Of a stretch of 64,000 nt of DNA, positions 719 to 34,304 are shown piece after piece; the stretch's first letter is position 1; each line of letters begins with the position of its first letter. A program made the translations under genes and the position numbers. This stretch comes from Mobula hypostoma (taxonomy: Eukaryota). Location: contig NC_086107.1 in the NCBI RefSeq assembly GCF_963921235.1, positions 96,474,001 through 96,538,000 on the forward strand, read 5' to 3'. The notes beneath the pieces were generated by a model. It was not told the DNA's origin. It searched no databases and worked only from the letters and a program-made list of their open reading frames with translations.

Positions 719-1241
719 CCAGCAGTAAATTGAAGTTAAAAGCACAGACTGCAAGACTGCATATACAAGAACCAAACATTAAAGCAATGGGGTTACGTGA
801 ATGGGTTTCATCAAAGCAGTTATTTACGTCATTGTGACTTGAGCATAAGCTGGCAGACCAGACGGATGTTGTCACTTAGCATATCAAATATGGTCATAGG
901 TGACGGCAATCAATAGCTTTTGGATACTTATGATACTTGCATGAATCCCAGAATAACTTGTGACCCAGTGATCTATCTGGACATTGAGGAAGGCTGCTGG
1001 TAAGAGCCTAACTTGCTAACGTAGGGGTGGATGCTCATGCAGATTTGGAGCGCAATGTCACACCCCTTTCCAGCAATTGTACAACACCTGAGCTCAGTCA
1101 GGGCGGCTGCAGTAACAGATCGGCAAGAGGACCGGGAATTTGAAACACAGTCAGGGTGGCAATGAGGGAAACCCCTTCATCGAGGATTACTTTCTTCGGA
1201 AGCTCCTGCTGGAATGCTATAAACTCAAGGTGAAGAACCTT

Positions 1242-1737
1242 ATTTCGTCTGGGTAGCCTCCAACCTGATGGCATGAACATTGACTTCTCTAACTTCCGCT
1301 AATGTCCCACCTCCCCCTTGTACCCCATCCGTTATTTATTTATATACACACATTCTTTCTCTCACTCTCCTTTTTCTTCCTCTGTCCCTCTCACTATACC
1401 CCCTGCCCATCCTCTGGGTTTTTCCCCCCTCCCCCTTTTCCTTCTCCCTGGGCCTCCTGTCCCATGATCCTCTCGTATCCCTTTTGCCAATCACCTGTCC
1501 AGCTCTTGGCTCCATCCCTCCCCCTCCCGTCTTCTCCTATCATTTTGGATCTCCCCCTCCCCCTCCCACTTTCATATCTCTTACTAGCTCTTCCTTCAGT
1601 TAGTCCTGACGAAGGGTCTCGGCCCGAAATGTCGACTGTCCCTCTTCCTAGAGATGCTGCCTGGCCTGCTGCGTTCACCAGCAACTTTCATGTATGTTGC
1701 TTGCATTTCCAGCATCTGCAGAATTCCTCGTGTTTGC
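1242..1737 (+). mobile_element. Penelope-like element 3' end/pLTR inserted in Tx1 copy A, 12-bp TSD GTGAAGAACCTT
   Basis: Encodes FRLGSLQPDGMNIDFSNFR* (end of the GIY-YIG ORF), then a pyrimidine-rich tract and hammerhead motif. TSD at 1230-1241 and 1738-1749. Confidence 0.9.
1602..1637 (+). ncRNA. Minimal type I hammerhead ribozyme (Penelope-associated)
   Basis: AGTC-CTGACGA-AGGGTCTCGGCCC-GAAA-TGTC-GACT: stem I AGTC/GACT, CUGAnGA core, stem II GGG/CCC, GAAA, GUC cleavage triplet. Confidence 0.8.
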
Positions 1738-3447
1738 GTGAAGAACCTTTACTGTGTCCAAAACTTCACTGCTAAGGGCTTTTTCAATGTCACCTTCAAG
1801 TATATGGTGGGATGGTTGACATTGCTGTGGAACTTTTAGGAGAAAGGGAGAACTAGGTGCCGTTGTGATTTCTGAAGGTGCAGCCACTCTTGTCTGTCCC
1901 CTCCCAGAGGACCGTGTGATTGCAGTGCACATGTTCAAACCACAGGTGCTCGTAATGGATGTCCTCACCTTCGTGACCCATTACACCGAGGGAGCAGAAA
2001 ACTGCGTAGACATCAAGGACACGTTCAGGATTTGGACAAGTAAGCGCCAGGTGATGGTCAAGCTGAGGGTGAACGTGAGTATTGCCATCATCCACCCTCT
2101 CTCATTCTTCACTGTCAGAGGGAACGACAGTTACTTGCCTCATGTCGGTCAACCCAGGCTGTGCTGTAACTGCAACTCGTCTGGACGTGTCACGGCCCAG
2201 TGCAGTGCGGCAACCTGCAAGAACTACAGAACAGGAAGGCCACAGGACAAAGGACTGCAGGGGAAGCAAAACCTGTGTGGAGAGGCAGGCCACCTCTCTA
2301 CAGTCTGGCCAAAACATGCCGGCATCTACACACAAGCAACTAGAGGGGGAGCCGGAACTGAGAACCCCCAGAGAAACGGTGACACCCCCACTAGCAGCAC
2401 AGCGGCCTTAGCCGAGACTGAACTGGGGAAAGGCCGACTGCCTCGAGCTCCCAGCCCTCAGCTTTGAGACTCCAGGCCCTTCCCCAAGTGGAGGAGGGGA
2501 AAGCAGATGAGCAAGAGAATGAATGGCCGGTGGTGAAAAGGAGAATTCCCAGAGAGACAACAGACTGCTCGGAGTAAAAGGAATGGGAAGAGAAGGGCAG
2601 GGCAGCGGAAAGATGCCAGCAACCTCTCATCGTCAGAGGGTGAAGCAACAGTGGGAAATTGATAACACAGGCAGAGGAAGTGCAGAAAGGGGAAGGCAAA
2701 GAGAAAGAGAGCCAACAGGCACAAATGGGTGAGGAACAAATTCTGCCAGCCTCTTCTTATCCACGGGAGACTGAGGGCAGCACAGGAACCATTCACCCCC
2801 CAGCTCAGTCCAGGAGACCGTGAGCAGAACGGAAACTGCCATCACCACCCCCCAGTTTAGGGCTGATGAACTAGAATTCTAATTTCAGAACACAGTTATG
2901 GAGACAAAACTGCCAGCCACTGGCCATGCACAGTGTGAAGAGTGTCAATGCCTTGCAATGCCTTACCAAGTTCAAGGCTGACGTGATAGTCTTACAGAAG
3001 TATGGGCTACCATACCTCTTCAACTACCGGAGGTGGTCACGATGGTGGTCCCACCGTCTGTCTGTGTGGTCGGGGCAATGACAGTCACACTCCTGATCTG
3101 GGGATTCTGCTGCAGGGAGGCAATTTTTCAGTCATAGGAGTCAAAGCAATGGTTGGGGTCATCTCGTGGCATAAGTTCTGTACCGTAACACTCCACTGTG
3201 GTTAATTAATATGTATACCTCACCCATGCAGAGCAAGCAACTGGCTGTTCTCCAGCAGCTCCCACTGGTGACATCCTAGCCAGTCATTCTGGCTGGTGAC
3301 TTTAACTGCACTATACTGTCGCTGGGAGATCCAGCAGACTGGACAGAACCTCCAGATTCCCGGTGGAAGTGGTTAAAAAAAGCCATATTGGGTGATCTCT
3401 TCAGCATCCCTGCAGGTGGAACACATCCACAACCCATCTGGTTCAGG

Positions 3448-4615: not shown

Positions 4616-4655
4616 GTTGCTTCTTGGCCTTTTGGCAAAGATTGAGTCTAATATC
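4616..4655 (+). pseudogene. U2 snRNA 5' fragment (nt 1-40) fused to the 5' end of Tx1 copy B
   Basis: GTTGCTTCTTGGCCTTTTGGCAAAGATTGAGTCTAATATC vs vertebrate U2 ATCGCTTCTCGGCCTTTTGGCTAAGATCAAGTGTAGTATC, 32/40 identical with no gaps. Similarity stops at nt 40. Confidence 0.85.
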
Positions 4656-7272
4656 GTGGTGGACTTGCTTTGATCAGGAGGGTTGAGAAGAGGTTAACTG
4701 ATGCAGGGCTGGATCCTCATGGGGACTGGGTAACTGATCTAACACCCCTTTCCAGTAATCGTCACCCAGCCAGGATAGCGGCATCCAACGGAGGATCTGG
4801 GATCCAAAACGGTGTCAGGGTGGCAGTGGAGGATCTCGCTGAGGGAAACCCGTTCAACAGGAACTGCTTCACTCGGAAGGTTTTACTGGACTGCTGCAAG
4901 TTCGGGGCTGGGGTGGGGACATTTATTGTGCTCAAAACTTCCATGGCTCCTTTGACGTAACCTTCACATGCGTGTTGCGATGGCAGAAGTTCCTGCAGGA
5001 TATTCGGCACAAGAGGAACAAGGCACCACTGACGCGGCTGAAAGCACGGCCTCTCTTCACCATCGCAATCCGCAAAGATCGTGTGATAACATTGGGCATG
5101 TTCAACCCACATGTGCCCATTGTGGATGTCCTCATCTTCCTTGTCTGTTACACCGAGGGCATGGGAAACTGTGTAGATGTTAAGAACATGCATGGGATCT
5201 GAACAAGCAAACACCAAGTCAAGGTCAAGCTAAGGGTGGATTCCAATGGTTCCACCATCTTCCCTCCCTCAGTTTTCACCAGTGGGGTGAACCGTGGCTA
5301 CATGGTCTACGCTGGGCAACCCAGGGATTGCCGGAACTGCCACAGGGTGGGACACCTCGCGGCCCAGTACAAGGCCACATCTCGTAACCTGAACAGAGGC
5401 CAAGACTTGCAACCTCTGCGGACAGGCAGGCTACCTGTACAGGGCCTGTACGAGACGTCCCAGCACCTATGCACGGCTGACCAGAGGAGGTGCTGGTACT
5501 GAAAGGGCCCCGGCAGAGGTGGGTGCACCCACCACCCGTGCACAGGCAGCGCCCAGCATAGAATAAACTTCCACGACAGAGGAAGGACCAACACCTCCAC
5601 CCAGAACCCCCAGGGCCCCCCACAAGATAAGGAGGAGCCCATGGAGGAGGAAAGAGCCGAGGGAGAAGAAGGTTGGAACGTGGTGATGTGGAAATGGGAG
5701 AAGTCCCAAAAGGTTGCGCCCAAACAACGAAGGGCAGAGGAACAGAGGGGAATTCCAAGAAAAGGGTGGGGGAGCACACAGCTTCCGGCCTCCTGTCCGC
5801 GTCGGAGGAGAAAGGCATTGGAGGAGGCCAGCAGCACGGACAGAGGAAGCGGCTGGCAAAAAGAGCTGAGAGAACAGAGGGTGGCATAGGTCTACTGGCC
5901 AGCCCCCAGGTACAGGAGGAGAGCAGCAAGGAATCAGCCGATCCCTGCTCTGGGAATCGTAAAGAGGCCTCTGGCTCCTAGCTCCAGGAGACCAGGAGTA
6001 GAAAGGAAGCCAACAACCCCCCAGCTTCGGGAAACCGGGAGCAGCGAGAAGATCACCAACACCCAGGAGCAGAACTTGCGTCTGGCGCACTGCAGCCAGA
6101 AGGGGAGGCGAATCCAGCAGAGAACAACCCCCCCAGGCTCAGAACCAGAACTGCCACACCCGGGGGAGGATTACCCGCAGTACCTGAGCCCACAGAAGGT
6201 GAAGGACTTCACAAAGGCGGTGGGCATGAAGGCTCAGGACTGCGAAGGTGAGGACGGAGAGCAGCCGAAATAAAGTTTGAACTATGATGGACCTTAAACT
6301 GGCTGCACTAAATGTGCGCAGTTTGAAGTGTACTGGGCGATGCGTCAGCGCACTCCAGTACTTGAACAATGTTAAAGTAAATTTGACTTTCCTGCAGGAC
6401 TGCGTACTACCACACCTCTGCAACTACCGAAGGTGCTTGCAGTGGTGGCCCCAGGGTCTGTCGGTGTGATCAGAGGGGCAATGATTGTCATGTTTCCGGC
6501 CTGGGGATTATGCTACGGGGAGGCAACTTCTCAATCACCCAAGTTGAAGAGGTGGTTGCGGGTGCCTCACCAACAGGCACCAGGACCTCGCCTGGCTGGC
6601 GGTGAGAGGGGCCCTCCCAGTCAGAGCCCTCCTGTACACCCGGAACGTCGTCTCCGCACCCCACTGCCCACGGGAGGACTGCAGTGAGGAGGAGTCTGTG
6701 ACCCACCTCTTTGCACACTGTCAGTTCGCAAAGAGGGTGTGGAGGAGGATGGACGGGCTAGTGTCATGTTTCATCCCCAGCAGCTGCGTAACAGAGGACT
6801 CTCTGATCTACGGGCTGTTCCCAGGGACGCACACGGAGACCAACATCTGGTGCTGCTGGCAGATCATCAACTTGGTGAAAGATGCTCTTTGGTCGGCCCG
6901 TAACTTGATGATCTACCAGCACATGGAGATGTCCGTGGGAGAATGCTGCCGACTGGCACATTCTCGGCTGTAGGAGTACGTGCTGAGGGACGCACTGAAA
7001 CTCGGTGCAGCCACCGCAAGGGCCCGGTGGGGAAGGACCACAGTATTGGTTTCTCCACCCGTGGGAGTGGGAGGGGTCGGGAGGCGGAGGAACCCCCTGA
7101 ACTATGGTGTATTGTATAATATGAACCACCAGAGTGCCACGTGAGAGACAGAATTATTTTACACTGTATGGAAAGTATTGACAATGGCTGTAAAGAACGT
7201 AGAGTTATTGAATGGTTTATTGTTGTAAGTACTTTTTAAAATTGTGGATGAAGTTTATGTTTTTAAAGCAAA
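4656..7272 (+). mobile_element. Tx1-clade (Keno-like) retrotransposon copy B: ORF1, APE N-terminus, then directly the zf-RVT C-terminus and 3' UTR (RT missing)
   Basis: ORF1 pieces 4670-5502 (GQPRDCRNCHRVGHLAAQ knuckle). ORF2 start at 6284 (LAALNVRSLK..FLQD). 6602-6973 CPREDCSEEESVTHLFAHCQFAKRVW. A/T-rich 3' end. Confidence 0.85.
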
Positions 7273-7479
7273 GAGCTAATGGTAAAGCTAGAAGTAGAGC
7301 TGGAGGGAGGTGGATCACTATTCTTTTGTCTCTTTTCCTCTATAACTTGATTAAAAGTTTATTTTTGAATATCATACATGTTGATTGCTTCCTTTGTTTG
7401 TGAATGTCTCTTGCTGCTGAATCAGGAAAGGACCAGTCATGAAACTTTAAAAAATTTTCATTGTAAGTCTATCCAAAAC

Positions 7480-7868
7480 TTGTTGCTCTCGCAGCACACT
7501 GAGATGTCCGTGAGGGAATGCTCTTGCCTGGTACTTTCCACACTGCAGGGGTACGTGGCTGAGGAACACACTGAAACACAGTGCGGCCAACTCAAGGGCT
7601 TGGAGGGGAAGGACCTCTGTACCTGCGCTCTTTCCACTACCGTACACAGAGGGTCTGGGTGGGGTGGGGCAGCCCCTTCTACAGTCAAAGGATTCATCAG
7701 CCTAGGGAGTGACGGGAGCAGCAATGGAGTTGGGTTTGTTTATGTCTTCCTATCACTAAAGTTTACACCCACTGAATGAACCATCCAAGAATGTAAATGT
7801 TTCATTTGAAATTTCTTCATTTGTATGCATTTTTGATTACCAATAAAGACTATTTTGGAATTTAAAAA
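7480..7868 (+). mobile_element. Older Tx1 3' end fragment
   Basis: QHTEMSVRECSCL parallels QHMEMSVGECCRL at ~6920. Ends aataaagactattttggaatttaaaaa. Confidence 0.75.
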
Positions 7869-7875
7869 GTGGAGC

Positions 7876-7923
7876 CCTGGCAGGGGGAGTCAGTGACCAC
7901 TGTGGCCGATATCCCAGGATGGG
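7876..7923 (+). pseudogene. U1 snRNA stem-loop I-like fragment at the 5' end of Tx1 copy C
   Basis: CCTGGCAGGGG..TGACCAC..(11 nt)..TCCCAGG matches U1 CCTGGCAGGGG..TGATCAC..(11 nt)..TCCCAGG, and the stem can still pair. Confidence 0.5.
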
Positions 7924-9262
7924 AATCATGAAATTCAGGGGGGAAGACAACAAGGATTCTGTGGCCAAGTGGGCCTGACCAGAGTTTAACCTGCTGACAC
8001 AGAGGTGGATCCAAATGCTGAATGGGAAACCAGTCCAACAGCTCCTTCCAGCACATAACCTGTTATAACCAGCTCCATCGTGATGGCAGTAGTGGTAAAC
8101 ACCTCAGGGGGAGAACAAGGGATTCACAACACTGGCAGGGGGATTGTAAAGGATCTGAATGAAGGGAACCCTTGACACAGAACCTCTTCATCAGCAAGGT
8201 CTAGCAGAAAGCTGCTGATTTGAGACAAACAATATCTACAGGACTTCACAAGTCCCAGCTAGAATCATAGAGTAATACAGAAGAAACAGGCCATTCAGCC
8301 CAACTGGTCCTTGCTGACCACAACATCCTCCCTGTTAGTCACAGTTATCTGTGTTCAGCCCATGTACTGATCTAAATGGGCTGTGAATGTCATGTCAGCA
8401 TCATAGCTGCCAGAGGAAGTGGACAAGTTAGGTCATTCTCGGTGATCGATACCCTCTGTGAAAAGTTAACTCTCAGTTCCGTTAAACTGTCCCCTCTTCT
8501 CTTGTACCTGGCAGGATGGCAGAAGCTGCTGCCGGACGTCCGGGAAAGGGGAATGAAGTGCCACTGTCGCTGCTGAAATCACAGCTACTCTGCACTCTAG
8601 TCACCGAGAAAGAGCATGCAATAATGGTGCCTACAGAACTGTACAAGTCTTAGCACATATATATAACTGGGTGCCCAAGACATTTGCACAGTACTGTATT
8701 TGTCAATGGGGAGTGGAGAGCAAGTTTGTAAATCCGGCGGGAGCAAAGAGTGCTGGGAATGGCGAGGGTGGAGACGTGGGAGGGGTATGGGGGCAAGTGG
8801 CAGAGAAGGATTACCAGTGGTAGGGGGGTGGCATGGGTACAGACACACCCAGCTCTGAGACACCAGGCAAGGTCATTTGATTCTAAACAATTGATCATTA
8901 CAGAATGTCTCTCTTCCCACTCTCTCCTCTCTCCCTTCCCCTTTCCCCAACCATGATTCCCCTCTTCCTGCCCCCTTCCCACTCCCAGTCAACAATGGAG
9001 ACCCGTATCAGAATCATGTTTATCATCACTCACATATATCATGAAATTTGTTTATTTTTTTTGCAGGGGCAGTACAATGCAATACATAGAATTACTACTG
9101 TACTGTGCAAAAGTCTTAGTCCCCCTGGCTATGTACATGTATGTGCATAAGACTTTTGCTCAGAACTGTATGTTCAACCCACGTGCCCATTGTGGATTTC
9201 CTCACCTTCCTGTCTCGTTTCATCAAGGGAGCAGGAACTGCATCCACATCAAGGATCGATAA
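7924..9262 (+). mobile_element. Tx1 copy C: leader and heavily decayed ORF1, interrupted by a CR1 scrap (~8260-8500) and a Tc1-like MITE
   Basis: Leader 7981-8052 is homologous to 1003-1074 and 4689-4755. tgttcaacccacgtgcccattgtgga at 9171 matches copy B at ~5098. Confidence 0.7.
8634..9168. mobile_element. Tc1/mariner-like non-autonomous element with TA TSD; each end is a small TIR palindrome
   Basis: cagtactgtgcaaaagtctt-type TIRs occur four times (8634, ~8677-8697, ~9098-9118, ~9149-9168). Flanked by TA, and Tx1 ORF1 resumes on both sides. Confidence 0.75.
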
Positions 9263-11336: not shown

Positions 11337-13958
11337 ACATAGAACATAGAATAGTACAGCACAGTACAGGCCCTTTGGCCCACAATGTTGTGCCGACCCT
11401 CAAACCCTGCCTCCCATGTAAGCCCCTAACTTAAATTCCTCCATATACCTGTCCAGTAGTTTCTTAAACTTCACGAGTGTATCTGCCTCCACCACTGACT
11501 CAGACAGTGCATTCCACGCACCAACCACTCTCTGAGTAAAAAACCTTCTTCTAATATCCCCCTTGAACTTCCCACCCCTTACCTTAAAGCCATGTCCTCT
11601 TGTATTGAGCAGTGGTGCCCTGGGGAAGAGGCACTGGCTATCCACTCTATCTATTCCTCTTATTATCTTGTACACCTCTATCATGTCTCCTCTCATTCTC
11701 CTTCTCTCCAAAGAGTAAAGCCCTAGCTCCCTTAATCTCTGATCATAATGCATACTCTCTAAACCAGGCAGCATCCTGGTAAATCTCCTCTGTACCCTTT
11801 CCAATGCTTCCACATCCTTCCTATAGTGAGGTGACCAGAACTGGACACAGCGCTCCAAGTGTGGCCTAACCAGAGTTTTATAGAGCTGCATCATTACATC
11901 GCGACTCTTAAACTCTATCCCTCGACTTATAAAAGCTAACACCCCATAAGCTTTCTTAACTACCCTATCCACCTGTGAGGCAACTTTCAGGGATGTGTGG
12001 ACATGTACCCCCAGATCCCTCTGCTCCTCCACACTACCAAGTATCGTGCCATTTACTTTGCACTCTACCTTGGAGTTTGTCCTTTCAAAGTGTACCACCT
12101 CACACTTCTCCAGGTTGAACTCCATCTGCCACTTCTCAGCCCACTTCTGCATCCTATCAATGTCTCTCTACAATCTTTGACAATCCTCTACACTATCTAC
12201 AACACCACTAACCTTTGTGTCGTCTGCAAACTTGCCAACCCACCCTTCTACCCCCACATCCAGGTCGTTAATCGAAATCACGAAAAGTAGAGGTCCCAGA
12301 ACAGATCCTTGTGGGACACTACTAGTCACAATCCTCCAATCTGAATGTACTCCCTCCACCACGACCCTCTGCCTTCTGCAGGCAAGCCAATTCTGAATTC
12401 ACCTGGCCAAACTTCCCTGGATCCATTGCCTTCTGACTTTCTGAATAAGCCTACTATATGGAACCTTGTCAAATGCCTTACTAAAATCCATAAAGATCAC
12501 ATCCACTGCACTACCCTCATCTATATGCCTGGTCACCACCTCAAAGAACTCTATCAGGCTTGTTAGACATGATCTGCCCTTCACAAAATCATGCTGACTG
12601 TCCCTGATCAGACCATGATTCTCTAAATGCCTATAGATCCTATCTCTAAGAATCTTTTCCAACAGCTTTCCCACCACAGACGTAAGGCTCACTGGTCTAT
12701 AATTACCCGGACTATCCCTACTACCTTTTTTGAACAAGGGGACAACATTTGCCTCCCTCCAATCCTAAAGTACCATTCCCGTGGACAACGAGGACGTAAA
12801 GATCCTAGCCAGAGGCTCAGCAATCTCTTCCCTCACCTCGTGGAGCAGCCTGGGGAATATTCCGTCAGGCCCCAGGGACTTATCCGTCCTAATGTATTTT
12901 AACAACTCCAACACCTCCTCTCCCTTAATATCAACATGCTCCAAAACATCAACCTCACTCATATTGTCTTCACCATCATCAAGTTCCCTCTCATTGGGGA
13001 ATATCGAAGAGAAATATTCATTGAGGACCTCGCTCACTTCCACAGCCTCCAGGCACATCTTCCCACCTTTATCTCTAATCGGTCCTACCTTCACTCCTGT
13101 CATCCTTTTCTTCTTCACATAATTGAAGAATGCCTTGGGGTTTTCCTTTACCCTACTCGCCAAGGCCTTCTTATGCCCCCTTCTTGCTCTTCTCAGCCCC
13201 TTCTTAAGCTCCTTTCTTGCTTCCCTATATTCCTCAATAGACCCATCTGATCCTTGCTTCCTAAACCTCATGTATGTTGCCTTCTTCCACCTGACTAGAT
13301 TTTCCATCTCACTTGTCACCCATGGTTCCTTCACCCTACCATTCTTTATCTTCCTCACTGGGACAAATTTATCCCTAACATCCTGCAAGAGATCTCTAAA
13401 CATTGACCACATGTCCATAGTACATTTCGCTGCAAAAACATCATCCCAATTCACACCCGCAAGTTCTAGCCTTATAGCCTCATAATTTGCCCTTCCCCAA
13501 TTAAAAATTTTCCTGTCTTCTCTGACTCTATCCTTTTCCATGATAATGCTAAAGGCCAGGGAGCAGTGATCACTGTCCCCTAGATGCTCACCCACTGAGA
13601 GATCTGTGACCTGACCCAGTTCATTACCTAGTACTAGATCTAGTATGGCATTCCCCCTTAGTCGGCCTGTCCACATACTGTGATAGGAATCCATCCTGGA
13701 CACACTTAACAAACTCTGCCCCGTCTAAACCTTTGGAACTAATCAGGTGCCACTCAATATTAGGGAAGTTAAAGTCACCCATGATAACAACCATGTTATT
13801 TTTGCACCTTTCCAAAATCTGCCTCCCAATCTGCTCCTCTGTATCTCTGCTGCTACCAGTGAGCTTATAGAATACCCCCAATAGAGTAACTGCTCCCTTC
13901 CTGTTCCTGACTTCCACCCATACTGACTCAAAAGAGGATCCTGTTACATTACCCACCC
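11337..13958 (-). mobile_element. Young CR1 LINE, most of ORF2 (APE + RT) with few lesions
   Basis: ORFs 13624-13956, 12765-13712, 12399-12737, 12168-12362 and 11400-12152 (GDFNFP, PGNYRPVSLTS, DFSKAFDKVP, PQGSVLGP, FADDTK). (ttctatgt)n tail. Confidence 0.97.
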
Positions 13959-15965
13959 TTGCTGGCAGGTTTGCTAGGACTGTTGAGAAAGGTTTAAACT
14001 AGTTTGGCAGGAGTTGGCAGCTGGAGTGATTGGGCAGAGGATGGTGCAGTTGGCATTACTAGTAGATGCACCCCTGTAGAGAGACTGTGAGGAAGGACAG
14101 GCAGTTGAAAGGGGGAAATTGTAGTCAGTGTCTATTTTATCACAAGATGTATCAAGAACAAGGGTGATGAACTCAGAACATGGGTCAGTACATGGAACTA
14201 CGACGTTGTGGCCATTACAGAGCATTGGCTGTCACAAGGGCAGGTAGACTGCTGGATGTTCCAGGCTTAGATGTTTCAAAAGGGACAGGGAAGTTGGTTA
14301 AAGTACTGAGGGAGCGACATTGTTAATCAGGGTTATACTATCACAGCTGAAGACAGGGAGTACGTCGTGGAGGGATTGTCCACTGAGTCAGTATGGTAAG
14401 AAGTCAGAAACTGGAAGGGAGCCATCACTCTACTGGGGCAATTCTGTAGACCTCAGCACCACCCCCACCTCACCCCATAGCAACAGGGACACTGAGGAAC
14501 AAATCAGGAGGCCGGTTTTGGAAAGATGCAAATATAACAGGGATGTTGGCATGAGAAACTTCAACTTATATTGACTGGAATTGACAGAAAGGTGTAGATT
14601 GGGTGGAATTTGTTAGGTGTATCTAGGAAGGGTTCCTGACACAATATGGAGACAAGCCGGCTAAGGGAGGGGCTATAATGGATCTGGTGTTAGGCAGTGA
14701 ACTGGGTCAGGTGTCAGAGTTCTCTGGTGGGTGAGCATTTCAGAGACCAACACTCCCTGACCTTGACCACTGCCTTAGAGAGGGATAGAAGCAGATGGTG
14801 TGGGTAAGTATTTAATTGGAGAAGAGGGAATAATGATAGTATTAAGCAGGACCCTGGGAGCATAAATTGGGAACAGATATACCAAGGGAATGCACAATGA
14901 AAATGTAGACATGTTTTAGGGAGCACTTGCTTGTATGGGGTTCCAGATAGGTTTGTCCCATTATGGCAGGTAAAGGATAGTAGAGTGATCCATGGTTGAC
15001 AAGAGATGTGCAATATCTATTCAAGAGGAAGAAAGAAACTTACTTAAAGTTTAGGAAGTAAGAATCAGACAGGAATCTAGAGAGCTACTGGGTAGGCAGG
15101 AAGGAGCTGAAGAGTGGACAAAAGAGCTAGAAGGAGGCATGAAAAGGCCTTGGCAAGTGGGATTAAGGAAAACCACAAGGCATTCTACATGTATGTGAAG
15201 ACAGGAGGATGGCTAGAGAGAGAGCAGGACCCATCATGGATAGAGGAGAAAACATATGCCTGGAGTCAGAGGAGGTAGGGGAGGTCTTTAATGAATACTT
15301 TGCTTCAGTTCTACCATTGAGAGGGACGTTTATATTTATGAGGACAGTGTAAAAGAGGCTGGAATGCTAGAACGTGTCGACGTTAAGAAAAAGGATGAGA
15401 TGGACGTGTTAAAAAACATTAAGATAGATAAGTCCTCGGGACCGGAGGGATTATATCCCAGGTTACTATGGAAAGTGAGGGAAGAGATGCGTGCACCCTT
15501 ACTGATAATTTTTACATCCTCACTGACCACAGTAGTAGTCCTGATGACTGGAAGCAACTGTTACTTCTTTGTTCAAGAAAGGGAGTGGGAATTATAGATC
15601 AGTGAGCCTCACTTCAGTGGTGCGCAGATCATTGGAGAAGGTTGTAAGAGAAAGGTTTTATGAACATCTTGAGAACCATCATCAGATTAGAGATTGTCAG
15701 TATGGATTTGTGAGGGGTAGGTCATGCCTCATGAGCTGGATTGAAGGTACAGCAGCTGTGGCTGCAGTGTGTATGGATTTTAGTAAGGTGTTCGATAAGG
15801 TTCCCCATGGTAGGCTTATTCAGAAAATCAGGAGACATGAGATCCTGTAACGTGGCTGTGTGGATTCAGAACTAGCTTGCCCATAGAAGGCATAATGGTT
15901 GTAGATGGAAGGTGTTCTGCCTGGAGGTCGGTAACCAGTGGTGCTCCATAGGGATCTGTTCATGA
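13959..15965 (+). mobile_element. Old decayed CR1 (ORF1 end, APE, RT start); its 5' part is at 11220-11336
   Basis: GNYRSVSLTSVV..QYGFVRGRSCL..DFSKVFDKVPH. Sequence is continuous across the 11337-13958 insertion. Confidence 0.85.
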
Positions 15966-24440: not shown

Positions 24441-25405
24441 GTTAGAGATTTCCAGTGTCGGTAGCTGTTGCTATGTGTGCTGGAAGTCTACTACAGCTCC
24501 TGCTTTTGAGATGGTGACGTGGGCTTACTGAGGACAAGATGATCTGTCTGGTTTCTTGACTCCATGAAATCTCTCTTGGTATCCCCTGCTGTTTTAATTC
24601 CTTCGCTAAACCGTAACTGGCTGCTAGTGCATCAGGCTTAATGCTAACAACAGGAATTCTGCAGATGCTGGAAGTTCAAGCAACACACATCAAAGATGCT
24701 GCCTGGCCTGCTGCGTTCATCAGTGTGTTGTCAGGCTTAATGCTGTTTCTTTTGTAAATGGGTTTTTAGCTCCTGGTCTTTGTGTTTGGCCCACACTGAG
24801 AACTGTAGACAGAGTAACCCACACATCCTGTCCTGGCTCCAGTCCCTGTTGATCAGGGTGGCTGCAACAATGCCGGCTACATTTTAAAATGGGTTGTGTG
24901 CTAACTCATCCATGTTAAATCTCACTTTCCTGAGCATATGACAGCCCCTGTCTCCTTTTGTATATCTACTCCCAGGGTAGTATTTTTCAAGTTTAAGTTC
25001 AGGTTTAATTCTCAGTCAACCACACACGTATACAGCTAAATGAAACAGTGTTTTTCCGGGGTCAAGGTCCAAAACACGGTATATACAGTCACACACAGCA
25101 AACAGCACATATAGTTACGGTAGCACATACAGTCACAATATAATATTAGCACAAGTCCCTGAGTGTTGTGACTTGAAGATTGATGGTGCAAGGACTGTTG
25201 TCCTAAAGCCACATTTCTGCAAGAACAGGTATGTAGCAGTTCCTTATCTCGCATTGTGTCAGCCGCAGATTAAGGCAATCCAGTTTGTCTTGCAGGGAGC
25301 GAACACTGGAGACCTGCAGTGATGGGAGGGCCAGGCTGTAGGGACTAGCCCCCAACCCAGCACAGATTCCAGTGCCCCCACAGCACCTCTGTTCTCTCCC
25401 ACACT

Positions 25406-26737
25406 GTTGGAAAAGATTCTTAGAGATAGGATCTCTGGGCATTTAGAGAATCATGGTCTGATCAGGGACAGTCAGCATGGCTTTGTGAAGGGCAGATCGT
25501 GTCTAACAAGCCTGATAGAGTTCTTTGAGGAGGTGACCAGGCATATAGATGAGGGTAGTGCAGTGGATATGATCTATATGGATTTTAGTAAGGCATTTGA
25601 CAAGGTTCCACATGGTAGGCTTATTCAGAAAGTCAGAAGGCATGAGATCCAGGGAAGTTTGGCCAGGTGGATTCAGAATTGGCTTGCCTGCAGAAGGCAG
25701 AGGGTGGTGGTGGAGGGAGTACATTCAGATTAGAGGATTGTGACTAGTGGTGTCCCACAAGGATCTTGTTCTGGGACCTCTACTTTTCATGATTTTGATT
25801 AACGACCTGGATGTGGGGGTAGAAGGGTGGGTTGGCAAGTTTGCAGACGACACAAAGGTTGGTGGTGTTGTAGATAGTGTAGAGGATTATCAAAGATTGC
25901 AGAGAGACATTGATAGGATGCAGAAGTGGGCTGAGAAGTGGCAGATGGAGTTCAACCAGGAGAAGTGTGAGGTGGTACACTTTGGAAGGACAAACTCCAA
26001 GGCAGAGTACAAAGTAAATGGCAGGATACTTGGTAGTGTGGAGGAGCAGAGGGATCTGGGGGTACATGTCCACAGATCCCTGAAAGTTGCCTCACAGGTG
26101 GATAGGGTAGTTAAGAAAGCTTATGGGGTGTTAGCTTTCATAAGTCGAGGGATAGAGTTTGAGTCGCGATGTAATGATGCAGCTCTATAAAACTCTGGTT
26201 AGGCCACACTTGGAGTACTGTGTCCAGTTCTGGTCACCTCACTATAGGAAGGATGTGGAAGCATTGGAAAGGGTACAGAGGAGATTTACCAGGATGCTGC
26301 CTAGTTTAGAGAGTATGCATTATGATCAGAGATTAGGGGAGCTAGGGCTTTACTCTTTGGAGAGAAGGAGGATGAGAGGAGACATGATAGAGGTGTACAA
26401 GATAATAAGAGGAATAGATAGAGTAGATAGCCAGCGCCTCTTCCCCAGGGCACCACTGCTCAATACAAGAGGACATGGCTTTAAGGTAAGGGGTGGGAAG
26501 TTCAAGGGGGATATTAGAGGAAGGTTTTTTACTCAGAGAGTGGTTCATGTGTGGAATGCACTGTCTGAGTCAGTGGTGGAGGCAGATACACTAGTGAAGT
26601 TTAAGAGACTACTGGACAGGTATATGGAGGAATTTAAGGTGGGGGGGGTTATATGGGAGGCAGGGTCTGAGGGTCAGCACAACATTGTGGGCCGAAGGGC
26701 CTGTACTGTGCTGTACTATTCTATGTTTTATGTTCTG
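25406..26737 (+). mobile_element. Young 5'-truncated CR1, nearly identical to the inverted copy at 11337-12665
   Basis: ORFs 25407-25733, 25747-26190 and 26159-26755 match the peptides of 11400-12737 almost exactly. Confidence 0.96.
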
Positions 26738-27700: not shown

Positions 27701-28184
27701 CTAATCAAATCTTACAGCGACGTTGGATCAGTTGGGTGTGTGACGGAAAAGCGTGGCCTCATCCTTTGTGTTCTATGCATGGGGTTTTGTCGTCAAGTCC
27801 CATGCTTGATATTTGGTCCCCAGTTAATGGTTGTTTCAGATATTAAACAGAGTTTTAAAAACAGAATAACCAAAGTAAACCTTATTTATAATAAAAATAT
27901 TCTCACAAGTGCACCAAGCAATGCCTTTTCATTCTCTACACTGATAGTCAATGCTTTCAGCCCTGTTCTATTACATTCCTACACATCCATTGCACTGATC
28001 CCACTCATGTCCCCCCCCCAGGGATAGTATACAACTGCAATAATGAATGGGCTTCCTCCCCCAACCAGGCCCCTCCCTCTCCAATAGAAGACATCCCCTA
28101 CACTGTGGTCCCTCCCCACCGAGCCCTTGCACCAAGCTTCACCGCGTCCCTCGGCAGGTACTCCTGCAGCGTGGGACTTGTTAC

Positions 28185-29579
28185 ACATTTTAATTCCACG
28201 TCCCATTCCCATTCTGATATGTCAATCCATGGCCTCCTCTACTGTAAGGATGAAGCCACACTGTTACATAACCGTCAACAATGAATATCAATTGAGATAG
28301 GTTATATAAAAACAACCAAACATTTATTAAACACGGATAAACGATAAGGTAAAAAAAACAAATGAAAACTTTAACCGGAAGTTATCCGCTATGCAGCCAT
28401 TCAACAAATCAACACTCGGCACTGATTCTTAAAGAGTTAAATGCAAAAACAGTTCTTAAAGATATAGTTCTTAAAATGGTAAATTCGAAAGTCCAACAGA
28501 TTTACACGTTCAATTGGGAGAGACTTCTCTGGAGAAGGATTTCTTCACAGACGTAACTTTCCAGCTGGTTCTGTCCACAGGATTCACGATGCCGAAAATA
28601 AGCAGTTTAAAACAACTGACCTTAAATTCTTTTAGAGAGAGAGAGCAAACCGTTGCATGAACTCCTTGCTCTTTTTGGCAAGAGTTATCCTCGATGCAGG
28701 TTGCTACTCCGCCAACGAAGACTCAATAAGGTTGATCCTTTGTTAAACTGCCAAACGATGCTGACTCCTCTCGATCCTTCGATCCTGCACTTCGATAAAT
28801 TCTTCACTCTCCCTTCTACTGTTGGAATTGAGTAAATCAACACATCTAGCCAAAAATTTCCAGTCGAATAATACCGTATTTTGCAATAGAATGCAATACT
28901 CCATTTTAAAAATGAAACTGTATCACAAGAACAAACATGCAACAGAAACGGAGACACAGCACATTCTACCTGGAAATCTACAAACTAAAAAAACCCTACT
29001 GCGTCACCTGGGTTGACCCTTATATACCCGTGGTGCACATGTCATCACGTGACCTCACATCAGCGGGAAAATCACATCAGGTGACCTCCAAGAGACCATT
29101 ACATCATTCTTGCAAAAAAACAGATCTCCTTGAGCATGTAACCACACTCAGGTTGGAGGAACAACATCTTATATTCCGTCTGGGTAGCCTCCACCCTGAT
29201 GGCATGAACATTGACTTCTCAAACTTCTGCTAACACCCCTCCTCCCCTTCTTACCCCATCCCCTATTTGAATTATTTATTCATTTATTCTGCCCCCGCCT
29301 TTTTTCTCTCTCTCTTTCCCTCTCACAATCACTCCTTGCCTGCTCGCCATCTTCCTTTGGTGCTCCCCTCTCCCTTTCTTTCTCCCGTGTCTCCAGCTTT
29401 GTTTCCCTTTTGCCAATCAACTTTCCAGCTCTTAGCTTTATCTCTCCCCCTCCTGTCTTCTCCTATCATTTTGGATCTCCCCCCCCCCACCTTTCAAATC
29501 TCTTACTATCTCTTCTTTCAGTTAGTCCTGACGAAGGGTATTGGCCCGAAACGTTGACTGTACCTCTTCCTAGAGATGC
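28185..29579 (+). mobile_element. Penelope 3' fragment split by a solo LTR; hammerhead at 29524-29559
   Basis: THFNSTSHSHSDMS..DEAT|LRLEEQHLIFRLGSLHPDGMN. AGTC-CTGACGA-AGGGTATTGGCCC-GAAA-CGTT-GACT. Confidence 0.88.
28262..29143 (-). mobile_element. Solo LTR (~880 bp) with terminal inverted repeats TGTTACAT/ATGTAAC and TSD (C)ACAC
   Basis: Cleanly interrupts the Penelope sequence gaagccacac|tcagg. Minus-strand TATATAA at ~29020 and AATAAA at ~28323. Confidence 0.8.
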
Positions 29580-30060
29580 ATTGTTCCACCAATCGTCTGG
29601 GCGGGGGTGAAGGCTATCGGCGCAAGGAGATACATTCAACCGGCCATCTCCTTCAGACCACGCAGTCAGTGCCTCCTGAGCAATGCCTCACCGGATGCCT
29701 CCCGCGTTTACCCCTCACATGCCTGCTACTTTCATTTCCCCAACCCTTCTGCTATGTCCTGATGCCCCAAATGTCGACTGCTTCTTTTTCCTTCCATGAA
29801 TGTTGCCTTACCTGCTGAGTTCCTGCTCGGAGTCTGTTGATCCAGGTTTCAGTGTGTTTTGTGTCTGCATTATCTATTATTGATTCTGCAATGTTGGTGG
29901 AAATTGGAATTCTATGTTGTGTTTAATCAGCCTGATCCGCGTGTTACGATTAATTCTATAATGAGACCGATGTTCAGTGGAACTTCTGTCACTTTTGCTT
30001 GTGTGTTAACGGCGACCTCTGCTGGTGACGAATGCCAAACCGCACCTTGTCTTCCTCTGT

Positions 30061-30465
30061 GTGATGATGGAGACATCTATTGGTGGAAATATGAACTGCA
30101 CATTGCGTTTGTCTTTGTGCTGATGGGGACATCTATTGGTGGAAATGTGAACTGCATGTTGCGTTTGTCTTCGTGATGACGGGGACATCTATTGGTGGAA
30201 ATGTGAACTGCACATTGCGATTGTCATTGTGATGACGGGGACATCTATTGGTGGAAATGTGAACTGCATGTTGCGTTTGTCTTCGTGATGACGGGGACAT
30301 CTATTGGTGGAAATTTGAACTGCACGTTGCGTTTGTCTTCGTGATGACGGGGACATCTATTGGTGGAAATTTGAACTGCACGTTGCGTTTGTCTTCGTGA
30401 TGACGGCGACATCTATTCTTTGTGATGATGGAGACACCGGTTGGTGGAATGTGCAACTGCAATTC
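30061..30465. repeat. 56-bp minisatellite, about 6.5 good copies plus degenerate flanking units
   Basis: Unit gtgatgacggggacatctattggtggaaat(g/t)tgaactgcacgttgcgtttgtcttc. Confidence 0.95.
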
Positions 30466-31611
30466 ATTCTTACTCGTGTTCACAGGGACATCTTTTGGGA
30501 TCAACTGGAAAGGCATCTTGCTGTTGATAGCATTTATCGTGATATCTGTTGGGATACAGTGAAACTATGGGTGTGTTTGACCATCACACAGGAGAATATA
30601 GAAAGTAGTCTATGCCTTTGTTTCTTCCACAAAAGTGCACGATGAAACACTTTCCCTTTAGTATTGTGACAGGGTCTTGAATTACCCCTATGAATTGTGT
30701 TCGATTACCCCTACGAACTGTGCTTTTGAAAAGAGAGAGAGAGAGTTATTTAACACCAACATGTGTTTTTGAAAAGAGAGAGTGAGAGAGACGAAGACTG
30801 CTCACAGATTGTTTATACTTTCTTCAAGGACATCGCCTGCTTGTACTCTTCCACAGACAGAGATGGGTGGAGTTATTTGAGAGACAGTTGGTGCTCAGCA
30901 TGGGAAGATAAAATAGGAGATCAGATAATATAGATGTCAGGCACATGTTTTGGACACTGAATGAGCTTTGTTGTTCCCGCAGGAAAAGTGGGTTTTTGGA
31001 GCATCGATCAGGCAGATGGATCAGTGGCTCTTGCAGTGAAAAGGAAAGGGGTTGACCGGTGGGGAGTTGTTCATGTGTCCACCCTTGCCTGGGTGATAGC
31101 TTCACCACAGAAGACTGGTCCCCTTTGTTGTGGCCACAGTCGGTGACTTTTAGAAGATTTCAGAGGACGAGAAGATTGACGGCGTCAGCTCACCTGAAGA
31201 CTCAAATCTCCCCCTCTCTCTCTCTCTCCCCATCACTACTCAACTCAATACCACGAACTGAACTGAACTGAACTTTACTCATCATCGTAAGACTGTATCT
31301 TTTTACCCGTAGACTTAAGGAAGCTTGGTTTTTCATACATTTATTTCCACACTTACTGATATACTTACTTATACATATAAAATCATTGCTAACCTGTTTG
31401 ATTTATCTACATTTATATTACTGTATTGCATAGTTACTAATAAATATTATTAGTTAATAGCAATACTGGACTCCAAAGTGTTTTCTATTTCTGCTGGTTC
31501 TTTATTCCCGTCACGAGGTATGTGACAAAATTGGGGCCTGCGTCCGTGATTGAACAAATTGTGGGAGGCTTGTTTGAATTGATTGGGGAAAATCCCTTTT
31601 GATTTGGTTGT

Positions 31612-32265
31612 GTGGAAATACAGCAGAAAAGGACGTTAGTGTTGAGGAGTTTCTGTTGGAACCAACCTGGGGAAGCGTTGGATGATGCTACGAGGGTTGT
31701 GCTGTTGGGAATTGCTCAGAAGGTAAGACTAAAGGTGACCAGTATAATGAGGAGAGCTCAGATACAGACGATAATAGCCCAGCGTTATATAGATAAGGGA
31801 ATGTTTGATGAGGAGGCGTTAGAGTTGTTTTTTGGAAGGAAACCTACTGAGGCTGAGGTTCAGTTGAAATTGCAATTGGAATTAAAACAGCTCGAGGCTG
31901 TTGAAGCAGAAAAGAGGAGGGTCCGTGAGGCTAGAGAGGCAGACAAACAGAGGGAAGAGGCAGAAAGACAGAGACAGTTTAAAAGGACGATGTGGCAGCT
32001 GAGAGGTTTAGTGTCGGACCCTGATGATTTTTACAGCTCAGAAGGGCTTGTTTTGTGTGATGAATTTAAAAGTTGTTTTCCTGATGATGTAAGGGCATAC
32101 CCAGATGCAGAGGATGCCACCACCCTGTGGCGGTCTGCTAAGAAAGCAGACAAAATTGTTTTAACCCACGAGCTCGAGTTTACTCCAGATGAGAGTTTGC
32201 CAGAGAATGGTTGGGAGGTCCGAGTGACCTTGAATGTGAAACTGGGACAAGTGATGACAGCCTAG
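31612..32265 (+). pseudogene. gag: Gmr1-like gag remnant
   Basis: Coiled-coil E/R/Q-rich region, then LVLCDEFKSCFPDDVRAY..TLWRSAKKADKIVLTH (capsid/SCAN-like). Confidence 0.7.
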
Positions 32266-33161
32266 AAGAGGCAGCTGTCCCGATTGCCTGTGTTCAGGTT
32301 GTTGAAGTACCTGTGAGTTCACAGGATTCTGAACCTTGTGTTGAGACTCAGTTAAAATCTGAGGTGTCTGACTTGGTTGAAAAGAAATGCATTTTTTTTT
32401 GTGTCAGATGATCTTGGTTCAGTGAATAAGGGGTTAACTTTGGTACCAGTGGAATGTGAGGATTCTCAGTCACTTGTATTAGACAGTGTTTTAAAAGTTA
32501 GTGCTGAGATGGAAATTGGTGATGTCAGTGTTGCTGAAAATAATGGGAAAAGTGCTGTTTCTGGACTTTTGGGTAAAATGCTGGGAAAGGTTGGATTGAT
32601 TGTGCAACCTTTGACCCTGCTTGCAGGACCGAGGCCTGCTGAGAAAGGATGTGCTACTCTGTGGAATTTTGTTTGGACACGTGGAAGTACACACCTGCAA
32701 GGTCATGCTGTTATTCAGTGTGATGTTATGGAAGCAAGTCGAAGTGAAGGTTGTAATCAGAGGGAAGGATTGTTTGGTCTCTTCCATAATGTATACATGG
32801 TTCTTATAAGCCTGGTGATGGTGCTAAGCTTAGTAAACAATGGAGGCATGTTGACACCTCTCCAAGGTAAGGTTGGTATGGCTGTTCAGCTGACGAGCAG
32901 AGCTGCTGTTGAGGCCTATGACAGCAAAACCAGAGGTTTAAATTATGATGATGTGTCACAGAATTTTCTACCTTCCAGATTTCGGCAGGACTTAGAGGGT
33001 AGTAAGGCTGATGAGAGTAAGGTGTATGAAAAAGACTTGTCCTTATTGAGGAAGGAATTTATAGAGGAACAGAAGCGAGATTCTGGAATGGTGGCTTTAA
33101 AGGAGAAAGCTCTCACGGGAGAGGAGGCTCAGAGTCAGTAGGGTATTATCTTAAAGATGGG

Positions 33162-34064: not shown

Positions 34065-34304
34065 AACACTTGTTTGCTAGAATTACAGCTGGGAGAATTG
34101 TTGCGGAACAAAATGGAGTCGTGGAATCTGATAATGGGATGGAAAAACATGTTTACCCACTGAATCTAGTCTCACCAAGATGTCAGAACTCCACGGTTTT
34201 GAAAATATTACTGATAAGGTCCATCAGTTGGACCCTACACCGCAAAAACAAGTGAAAGAACTAATGGGCAAGCATAAAGATTTATGTTCTGACATTCTGA
34301 AGCA

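Follow-up and report, generated by a model that had tools for sequence, protein, structure and literature searches.

Site-specific LINEs such as R1 and R2 are co-transcribed with their target gene. Elements of this kind are also discussed in PMC4494074. Among non-LTR retrotransposons that target snRNA genes, a 2015 summary names only Keno and Utopia, both of which insert in U2, with the insertion site at nt 39 (PMC4640811). Keno is a U2 snRNA gene-specific, AP-endonuclease-type element of the Tx1 clade (Kojima and Fujiwara 2004, as cited in PMC4494074 and PMC4640811), and Utopia elements are of the restriction-like-endonuclease type (PMC4640811). The DNA transposons Dada-U1 and Dada-U6 are named for U1 and U6 (PMC4640811). 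Dada-U1 is specific to U1 genes and produces target duplications of 6–7 bp (PMC3706591, PMC8869645).

In crocodilians, the Tx1-Mar families co-cluster with Keno and have a Mariner transposon as their target. Three of them (Tx1-2_Crp, Tx1-2B_Crp and Tx1-4_AMi) carry heads derived from U1 and one, Tx1-11_Crp, from U2; these heads have been ascribed to template switching (Kojima 2015, PMC4494074).

Here, we describe a 64-kb stretch of the Mobula hypostoma genome (hereafter the window), in which an original prediction had placed a Tx1 copy headed by U1 snRNA stem-loop I close to a U2-headed sister. That prediction treated a change of snRNA target as possibly new. U1 and U2 heads on Tx1 elements are already known from crocodilians (PMC4494074), whereas the printed literature searched, which did not include Repbase Reports, yielded no account of insertion in U1 genes by a non-LTR element. 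Like Dada-U1, the ray family has a dedicated target in U1 snRNA genes, but it is a retrotransposon and not a DNA transposon.

Results

A U1-derived head on an old LINE copy

The old, dead LINE copy E2 opens with a U1 snRNA-derived 5′ head (U1 nt 8–53) at 7876..7920 on the plus strand. With a U1 gene of the same genome as the reference (L053:1501-1664), CCTGGCAGGGG at 7876–7886 is identical to U1 nt 8–18 at 11 of 11 positions. GTGACCAC and TCCCAGGA follow in the same alignment with U1-like spacing, as had been predicted. Overall, 7876–7919 and U1 nt 8–52 are 75.6% identical over 45 columns with 1 gap. The segment 7876–7920 is the top U1 match on both strands of the window (blastn, E 0.028). When the 235 nt that precede the leader were dinucleotide-shuffled 200 times, none of the shuffles reached its Smith-Waterman score of 33. 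The segment does not amount to a full-length U1, which spans nt 1–164 and has the 5′ splice-site-pairing end, the Sm site and stem-loops II–IV: only nt 8–53 can be aligned, and nt 1–7 and nt 54–164 are missing.

The covariance model RF00003, suggested earlier as a check, returned nothing in the window, either at the gathering score or at E ≤ 10. The same model also misses 10 out of 10 clearer U1-type relatives; genuine U1 genes in this genome receive 89–159 bits. The model lacks the sensitivity to pick up decayed pieces no longer than 53 nt, so its silence does not refute a U1 origin.

The predicted RNA structure fared worse. The two stem arms can be paired by hand at 8 of 10 positions, including two G-U pairs, but RNAfold leaves this helix unused. 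The 47-mer folds at −13.5 kcal/mol (z +0.72), and 149 of 200 shuffles are as good or better. Nothing in this fold points to a stem-loop I that has been preserved in the window copy, and the likening of its loop to the U1-70K site is unsupported.

A query consisting of 7861–7985 alone retrieved only itself. Together, the alignment with the genome's own U1, the shuffles and the relatives described below show that the head at 7876–7920 is of U1 origin, and they support the reading of the window copy as U1-headed.

E2 and its neighbours in the window

The U1 part of E2 is followed by a linker and the upstream part of the leader (7921..7980, plus strand), delimited by aligning 19 U1-type heads with MAFFT and by genome matches that begin at 7934–7944. 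The linker opens at 7921 with the family junction, ...TCCCAGGA directly followed by TGGGAATCATGA. It is common to the relatives, where it also extends right up to the U1 part; in the window copy about 45 nt of it are missing. Next comes a conserved 5′ leader (7981..8259, plus strand), found in both U1-headed and U2-headed copies (24 other loci, 67–83% identity, and the leader tree). The claim that sister copies share this leader holds, but its supposed start at 7981, about 58 nt after the head, does not, as homology runs from 7934–7944 in several relatives. An abundant short repeat was later inserted in the leader (8260..8364, plus strand; 830 first-look candidates, with matches of 79–88% identity). 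The ORF1 start of E2 (ATGGCAGAAG...) lies at 8516..8600 (plus strand), is 74% identical to 4979–5060 of the U2-headed copy and is interrupted by later insertions. A further ORF1 fragment at 9170..9229 (plus strand; 86% identity to 5098–5159) probably also belongs to E2.

On the other side of the head, a 5′-truncated 3′ fragment of a related LINE occupies 7473..7870 (plus strand), as judged from 77% identity between 7477–7621 and 6902–7045, from genome matches and from its tail motif. It ends with ...AATAAAGACTATTTTGGAAT at 7870, 5 nt upstream of the U1 head. A long target duplication around this fragment was suspected from another U1-like piece, 7293–7325, but the resemblance is not significant (p 0.15 against 7840–7990, p 0.998 against U1).

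The sister copy E1 bears a U2 snRNA-derived head at 4616..4655 (plus strand; nt 4–40 aligned). Rfam U2 recognised it with 20.3 bits at model positions 1–40, blastn gave 84% identity (E 5e-6), and 0/200 shuffles matched the score. Its leader and ORF1 follow at 4656..5499 (plus strand), with the ORF1 ATG at 4980 (leader matches; first and second Pfam RBD_ZCCHC3 domains). In E0 (993..2464, plus strand; leader matches, Pfam) this 5′ part is present for a third time, with no recognisable head. E0 consists of leader at 993–1241 and 1741–1815, with a repeat between, and ORF1 at 1820–2464.

A 5′-truncated copy at 6566..7223 (plus strand; Pfam zf-RVT) is separate from E1 and comprises the zf-RVT end of ORF2 and the 3′ UTR of a similar LINE that is younger and abundant. 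A genome search with it gave 3123 candidates; the 40 scored matches were about 90% identical, and all began at query position 18–22. On the minus strand, another related LINE 3′ end (27866..28330), which has the same terminal base in most genome copies, runs directly into U2 nt 39–94 (27806..27865; blastn 78% over 60 columns, E 1e-8). Judged by the alignment, this U2 junction is the canonical Keno/Utopia insertion site.

Heads follow the leader phylogeny

We took a census of heads in 40 leader-bearing copies (38 loci and 2 copies in the window), counting a head where 0/200 shuffles reached the observed score. There were 13 U1 heads, 14 U2 heads and 13 copies with neither. Twelve leader copies other than E2 carry U1 nt 1–53 at the homologous place, with one common junction, and the U2 heads of the 14 sister copies end at about nt 40 in most cases. 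The clearer U1 heads reach nt 1, and identity is as high as 88% over U1 nt 2–34. When 19 U1-type heads were aligned with U1 (MAFFT), the majority base equalled that of U1 at 44 of 55 positions. In this alignment U1-headed copies begin at U1 nt 1–5, and agreement between the consensus and U1 ceases after nt 53. The window copy and L080 have the junction TCCCAGGATGG.AATCATG in common. Between the U1 head and the leader stands AGGAATC, readable as U2 nt 34–40 or equally as U1 nt 55–63.

Over 300 nt of 5′ flank, 18 copies with heads have nothing in common, apart from one duplicated pair. These comparisons indicate that the head belongs to the transposed unit. ORF1 homology after the leader is present in U1-headed and U2-headed copies as well as in the window; in this they differ from SINEU, which is shorter than 500 bp and has no ORF. 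As in Tx1-Mar and SINEU, the 5′ end derives from U1 or U2 from near nt 1, and heads may recur in stacks: U1+U1 in L092, U2+U2 in L041 and U1+U2 in L133X, where U1 5–53 is followed by U2 13–34 and then by the leader and ORF1. Unlike Tx1-Mar, the ray copies show neither a Mariner-type preference nor a common repeat in their 5′ flanks (18 copies, 300 nt), ray elements lie in U1 and U2 genes, and the ends of their heads fit a 14-nt staggered cut.

A U1 breakpoint at nt 52/53 was observed twice, in the old clade (...CAGGAC/AGGAATCATGG) and in L133X. The motif CCCAGGAYRGNWATCATGGAGG, allowing up to 2 mismatches, had 21 matches, among them 5 family members including the newly found L092, and none was inside a U1 array. 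The old U1-headed copies all lie outside present-day U1 arrays.

An ORF1/RT phylogeny of U1- and U2-headed copies had also been proposed; the tree built here used the leader only (369 columns). The head types separate at a split with 96/95 support. One side holds 12 U1-headed, 1 U2-headed and 12 headless copies; the other holds 13 U2-headed, 1 U1-headed and 1 headless copy. Head type changes 3 times on this tree against a mean of 9.3 when shuffled, and 0/500 shuffles gave a value as low. This supports the view that head type follows the leader phylogeny.

Young insertions in U2 and U1 genes

A young relative, L135, sits inside a U2 array in the order U2 1–52, element, A(25), U2 38/39–191. Both U2 parts are 100% identical to the U2 gene, nt 39–52 are duplicated, and the insertion is at the canonical Keno site. 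Pfam recognised Exo_endo_phos (4.6e-14), RVT_1 (2.1e-38) and zf-RVT (5.7e-10) in its ORF2. By these domain matches, the element is one with an AP-type endonuclease, a reverse transcriptase and a zf-RVT. The full ORF2 protein was nearest to unannotated amphibian RT proteins (43–48% identity). A search with an RT fragment gave one misannotated match, and a protein atlas search gave generic RVT clusters only.

The predicted domain set of the L135 family is that of a Keno-like element, and so is the U2 3′ flank from nt 38/39 in both L135 and window 27806–27865. The ray family differs from Keno in that it is also found at a fixed U1 site (10 junctions) and so is not U2-only, in its many dispersed copies in unrelated flanks, and in an old sublineage with a U1 nt 1–53 head; its placement in Tx1 is putative. 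With Utopia it shares the U2 site at nt 39 as well as variable 5′ junctions, intact genes upstream and a lost 5′ gene fragment, but the endonuclease type and clade are different, and U1 targeting is unreported for Utopia.

The search of U1 arrays for insertions, likewise proposed beforehand, was productive. In 10 of 24 U1 3′ halves (those not listed as full genes), a LINE 3′ end and poly(A) directly precede the U1 sequence. These 10 loci are on the U1-array chromosome; their U1 3′ junction is at nt 40, except in variant U1, where it is at nt 37/38. The LINE tail there reads ...AATAAAGTAT(A)TTTTG..(A)n, with two tail types and two U1 variants. L119 resembles L120, and duplication within the array may account for some of the 10 junctions.

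We read five of the U1-site elements throughout, and their extents are all different (0.4, 0.83, 1.35, 2.1 and 4.1 kb). The full-length copy has a U2 head and abuts U1 spacer DNA, while one 5′-truncated copy substitutes for U1 nt 1–39 directly after the promoter region. Downstream of the junction, U1 flanking DNA is colinear at both loci checked (2/2). None of the five insertions has U1 1–53 upstream of the element, and no locus with the complete order U1 1–53, element, U1 40–164 was found. Among 27 matches to U1 nt 23–53, LINE sequence comes next in L133 only, outside the U1 arrays.

Copies that are 93–94% identical occupy a U2 gene and U1 genes. The idea that both snRNAs serve as targets is borne out by LINE junctions in both genes, but such close copies in both do not fit a clean switch from one target to the other, and neither does the U2 head of the full-length element at the U1 site. 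The junctions support U1 as a real insertion target in the Mobula hypostoma genome.

For E2 and the other old copies with U1 heads, the searches made brought up no 3′ end and hence no 3′ flank. None was recognisable in the 7 kb downstream of L073, a mosaic; 3′-end matches pair with one head only, L048, whose tail is not followed by U2; and downstream of E2 the window holds no plus-strand U2 3′ half.

Discussion

We consider it likely that the window head is the decayed U1-derived 5′ head of a dead LINE from a Keno-like family that inserts in snRNA genes and is co-transcribed with them. The endonuclease would nick these genes at a fixed site, between nt 38/39 in U2 and between nt 39/40 in U1, and would make the second cut 14 nt downstream. 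A full-length insertion would therefore be preceded by U2 nt 1–52 or U1 nt 1–53. U1 nt 40–53 span 14 nt, equal to U2 nt 39–52, and a head that ends at nt 53 combined with a 3′ flank that begins at nt 40 suggests a 14-nt stagger in U1 as well.

A copy in an snRNA gene would be transcribed from the snRNA promoter, which for U1 we infer from the heads. Its RNA and all daughter copies, wherever they landed, would start with that piece of snRNA. The head would then record the gene of the source copy, and the 3′ flank the destination. The window copy would come from a sublineage whose source lay in a U1 gene, and its neighbour at 4616 from a sublineage of U2 genes. As with R1/R2, such an element would need no promoter of its own, with the transcript starting in the host gene, but the host gene is here a Pol II-transcribed snRNA gene, and there are two different ones.

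The family probably reads out from both U1 and U2 RNA genes. One property of the endonuclease may lie behind both the old clade with U1 heads and the young insertions in U1. Somewhat less firmly, but still on balance, we favour a single Keno-like family that shuttles between U1 and U2 arrays and accepts both sites (GTTCT in both, with a 14-nt stagger), the head recording the parent's snRNA gene. U2-headed copies would go into U1 genes, and U1-headed copies would be found beside a U2 array, as in the window.

Alternatively, on reaching the 5′ end of the RNA of a U2-headed LINE, the reverse transcriptase could have switched to a free U1 snRNA and continued as far as the 5′ end of that molecule; such a chimera would have become a source by chance, and U1 genes would not be involved in the origin of the head. 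Template switching is the published account of the U1 and U2 heads of SINEU and has been suggested for Tx1-Mar (PMC4494074). It would accommodate the stacked heads in L092, L041 and L133X, and also the lack of a junction of U1 1–53 with LINE sequence inside present-day U1 arrays. However, template switching should scatter the breaks, and two independent junction classes have the same break at U1 nt 52/53. The distance from that break to the U1 3′ junction of the 10 loci is also exactly 14 nt, which is the length of the U2 target duplication. Moreover, a switch chimera would land without a promoter or, if in a U2 gene, would be expected to leave progeny with U2 before U1, and 0 of 13 U1-headed copies have U2 upstream of the U1 head. 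We therefore regard this explanation as unlikely.

A far weaker case can be made for a U1 fragment that is separate from E2, either a piece of a retropseudogene or a target remnant of the LINE that ends at 7870. That LINE 3′ end does lie 5 nt upstream of the head, and the family does insert in U1 sequence. Yet the family's U1 3′ junction is at nt 40 and not at nt 8, the junction of the U1 part with the leader is the same as in relatives, and other U1-headed copies have no LINE tails upstream. This reading is already disfavoured, and we give it very little weight.

Chance resemblance to U1, for which the silence of Rfam even at E ≤ 10, the window-level E of just 0.028 and the unremarkable fold might speak, is highly improbable and already contradicted by sequence comparison with the 12 other copies, whose U1 5′ parts at the corresponding position are clearer, by the junction shared with L080 and by Rfam being just as silent on 10/10 clearer U1-type loci.

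If one Keno-like family does shuttle between U1 and U2 genes, no non-LTR retrotransposon before it would have been shown to have U1 genes as a target. The family would then exemplify natural specificity for two targets and would carry its own lineage tracer, the head being usable as a marker of the location of the parent copy. Site-specific LINEs are models of how an endonuclease chooses its DNA and starting points for targeted gene insertion; U1 and U2 targets with the same cut geometry would form a natural pair of substrates for learning what the endonuclease reads. For the heads of crocodilian Tx1 and SINEU elements, carriage of the upstream half of the target gene by co-transcription may offer an alternative to template switching.

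U1 head of the window copy

The snRNA-derived head of the old LINE copy at window 7876-7920 originates from U1. As references we used the genome's own U1 (L053:1501-1664) and U2 (L064:1501-1691), taken from Rfam family searches of the 3.48-Gb assembly, in which the window spans G000:C45:96474001-96538000. U1 nt 8-52 can be aligned to window 7876-7919 with 75.6% identity over 45 columns, which is the top U1 match within the window (E 0.028), and the first 11 bases are identical, as the original prediction had stated. When the 235 nt preceding the leader (the conserved 5′ stretch behind the head) were shuffled 200 times with dinucleotide content kept, no shuffle scored as high. The claim that the head preserves stem-loop I found no support: 149 of 200 shuffles fold as well as or better than the head, whose minimum free energy is -13.5 kcal/mol (z +0.72).

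A covariance-model check, proposed in the same prediction, formally speaks against U1, as Rfam reported no U1 in the window at the gathering score or at E ≤ 10; it does detect the U2 5′ end at 4616-4655 (20.3 bits). However, the check is powerless for decayed fragments of up to 53 nt, because at E ≤ 1 it also missed U1 in 10 clearer U1-type loci, including L081 (U1 nt 1-41, 80%) and L076 (nt 5-59 by Smith-Waterman; nt 5-53 at 75.5% by blastn).

In homologous copies, on the other hand, the sequence ahead of the leader clearly converges on U1, which settles the prediction's other check in its favour. When 19 U1-type heads were aligned with U1 (MAFFT), the U1 base was the majority base at 44 of 55 positions, and agreement collapsed past nt 53. 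U1-type copies start at U1 nt 1-5 with unrelated DNA in front, and in 18 head-bearing copies the 300 nt on the 5′ side hold no common sequence, save for one duplicated pair. The junction ...TCCCAGGAC|AGGAATCATGGAGGCTGATCT is common to nearly all U1-type copies; the window version is TCCCAGGATGGGAATCATGA, to which L080 is nearest.

Head types follow the leader phylogeny

A genome search with window 7861-7985 by itself returned no match besides self, and the leader (7981-8255) gave 24 further matches. Another search, with U1-type copy L002 as the seed, revealed more places, 14 of which were fetched as short loci. A head was called if its score was not reached by any of 200 shuffles. By this measure, 13 of 40 copies (38 loci and two window copies) carry the 5′ part of U1 (L002, L040, L049, L073, L074, L076, L077, L079, L080, L081, L082, L086 and the window copy), 14 carry that of U2 (L014, L032, L035, L038, L039, L041, L043, L044, L045, L047, L048, L050, L051 and the copy at 4616), and 13 have neither, two of these being borderline U1 cases (p 0.02 and 0.035). 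The U1:U2 ratio of this set is biased by the U1-type seed; the unbiased set, i.e. the 24 leader matches of the first search, comprises 3 U1, 13 U2 and 8 headless copies. In U1- and U2-headed copies alike, the leader is followed by ORF1 homology. The 67–83% identity of the old copies to the window leader, together with the lack of an intact ORF in any old locus, argues that the family is old and dead at these leader-bearing places.

For a maximum-likelihood tree, only the shared leader was used (369 columns), with heads and linkers left out. It contains a split with 96/95 support that places 12 U1-headed, 1 U2-headed (L014) and 12 headless copies on one side and 13 U2-headed, 1 U1-headed (L049) and 1 headless copy on the other. 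L049 has an insertion in its leader and was flagged for odd composition. Head type requires 3 changes on the tree, compared with a shuffled mean of 9.3, and none of 500 shuffles was as low. The U1 head is thus inherited within a clade.

Stacked heads were also seen: L092 (G000:C18:137175004-137175170) has two U1 heads in a row (about nt 5-42, then nt 7-53), and L041 (G000:C9:45134530-45137602) has two U2 heads.

A relative inside a U2 gene

A young relative is found at L135 (G000:C45:96152100-96160300), in the U2 array some 240 kb upstream of the window. The locus consists of an intact U2 gene with spacer, U2 nt 1-52, a 5.2-kb element, A(25) and U2 nt 38/39-191. Every U2 part matches the gene at 100% identity, and the target is duplicated over 14 nt (U2 nt 39-52; A38 is ambiguous). 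The insertion point coincides with the site at U2 nt 39 given for Keno and Utopia in PMC4640811. ORF1 (486 aa) encodes two ZCCHC3-type RNA-binding domains and zinc knuckles, and ORF2 (1155 aa) encodes Exo_endo_phos, RVT_1 and zf-RVT. The named proteins closest to ORF2 are unannotated amphibian reverse transcriptases (43–48% identity); the Tx1 label of this family is therefore putative. Long open frames and perfect U2 flanks suggest that the family may have been recently active.

On the minus strand of the window, U2 nt 39-94 comes after a LINE 3′ end at 27866. The segment containing both and the flank beyond (27800-28183) has a 99% identical copy at C45:96021346-96021730 (in L106, G000:C45:96021200-96021900), in opposite orientation on the proximal border of the U2 array. 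The two copies have the appearance of an inverted segmental duplication that brackets the array.

LINE insertions in U1 genes

U1 genes are a target as well, with a fixed 3′ junction. A 33-nt pattern (U1 nt 54-86, ≤3 mismatches) matched the genome 61 times, and 24 of these matches were absent from the list of 42 full-length U1 genes when the lists were compared by eye. We examined 80 nt upstream at all 24 and found a LINE 3′ end with poly(A) directly abutting U1 in 10; the remaining 14 are eleven ordinary U1 genes or pseudogenes with 5′ parts and three otherwise 5′-truncated sequences. The join lies at U1 nt 40 (GGTTCTCCCAGGAC...) in eight of the ten, including L109, whose flank matched only from nt 42, and at nt 37/38 of a variant U1 in two. 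Eight tails are of the type ...CTGAATAAAGTATTTTTGG(A)n and two of the type ...TTGAATAAAGTATATTTTGAAAT(A)n. All ten LINE-tail/U1 junctions are on contig C12, which bears the U1 arrays (at 6.60, 7.08, 7.12, 12.456, 12.467, 12.475, 31.802, 31.808, 110.0 and 118.87 Mb).

Five of these elements, traced across, extend over 0.4, 0.83, 1.35, 2.1 and 4.1 kb. Since the extents differ, most of the insertions are independent events, while L119 and L120 may be mutual duplicates. Beyond the junction, U1 and its usual 3′ spacer are colinear (two loci checked). The 2.1-kb and 4.1-kb copies are 93% and 94% identical, respectively, to the L135 element in the U2 gene. The 4.1-kb copy begins with U2 nt 2-52 at 100% and adjoins spacer about 1 kb downstream of an intact U1 gene, and one 5′-truncated copy stands in place of U1 nt 1-39, immediately downstream of the U1 promoter region. 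The 5′ junctions are therefore variable, like those of Utopia and R2 as reported in PMC4640811.

Along the border of the main U1 array (G000:C12:12.45-12.59 Mb; L056, L131, L134), LINE insertions with only U1 nt 40-164 left alternate with intact U1 genes. Several loci hold a second U1 gene type with a rewritten stem-loop I (GGGAACCGTCGGTGATCAAGACGGCCGAGGTTCC; 158 bits against Rfam U1), namely L054 (G000:C12:21167211-21170374, U1 at 1501-1664), L111, L112, L123, L125 and L126. This type has also been struck by a LINE, at nt 37/38.

The known Tx1 targets in the figure 3 legend of PMC4494074 are U2, satellites, U5, 5S, transposons and microsatellites, and the available part of PMC8869645 (2022) names no U1-targeting non-LTR element. 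Our full-text searches gave no report of a non-LTR element in U1 genes, within a scope that leaves aside Repbase Reports and subscription journals.

Other features of the window

A very abundant LINE, with 3123 first-look candidates, has a 5′-truncated copy at window 6566-7223. The 40 of these candidates that were scored are about 90% identical to this copy, which is much younger than the adjoining snRNA-headed copies. Inverted copies of another LINE (about 1.24 kb, 95–97% alike) lie at 11423-12665 and 25404-26645, with RVT_1 and Exo_endo_phos_2 on the minus strand at 12402-13998 and RVT_1 on the plus strand at 25323-26187. A tandem array of about 9 units with a 56-nt period occupies 29982-30485. 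An LTR retrotransposon lies at 30732-36435, with direct repeats at 30732-31031/35670-35969 (94%) and 31215-31502/36148-36435 (98%) and integrase domains at 33030-34061. A tRNA-like stretch at 53116-53176 (24.4 bits, under the Rfam cut-off of 29) is probably a tRNA-derived SINE head; it lies within a repeated unit that recurs at 51893-52007 and 39934-40048.

Possible source of the U1 heads

Of 27 matches to U1 nt 23-53, one (L133) has LINE sequence instead of the rest of U1. Extended (L133X), it reads U1 nt 5-53, U2 nt 13-34, leader, ORF1 and an endonuclease-region fragment; thus, U1 was added ahead of a U2-headed element. The U1 break at nt 52/53 is that of the old clade, but with a different junction partner, and the breakpoint recurs. 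U1 nt 40 to 53 measures 14 nt, equal to U2 nt 39-52, and GTTCT is present in both stretches (U1 nt 41-45, U2 nt 42-46).

U1 heads are known from the crocodilian Tx1-Mar families Tx1-2_Crp, Tx1-2B_Crp and Tx1-4_AMi, and a U2 head from Tx1-11_Crp; these families insert in a Mariner element, and template switching is favoured in that report (Kojima 2015, PMC4494074). For the family studied here, we propose that a source copy would have resided in a U1 gene, with U1 1-53 upstream, and would have been transcribed from the U1 promoter, which PMC4494074 describes as external to the gene. Its progeny, including the window copy, would then begin with U1. No U1 gene with both the 5′ and the 3′ junction was found in the genome parts examined.

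At 993, 4616 and 7876 the window contains three old 5′ parts of the family, all in one orientation and clustered within 8 kb. The 3.5-Gb genome yielded only about 50 places with the leader. The three window copies adjoin the U2 array, and the copies at 4616 and 7876 belong to different clades of the leader tree. This suggests that the U1-headed copy may have been drawn to a U2-associated site. A U1-headed copy near a U2 array is the mirror of the U2-headed copy in a U1 gene.
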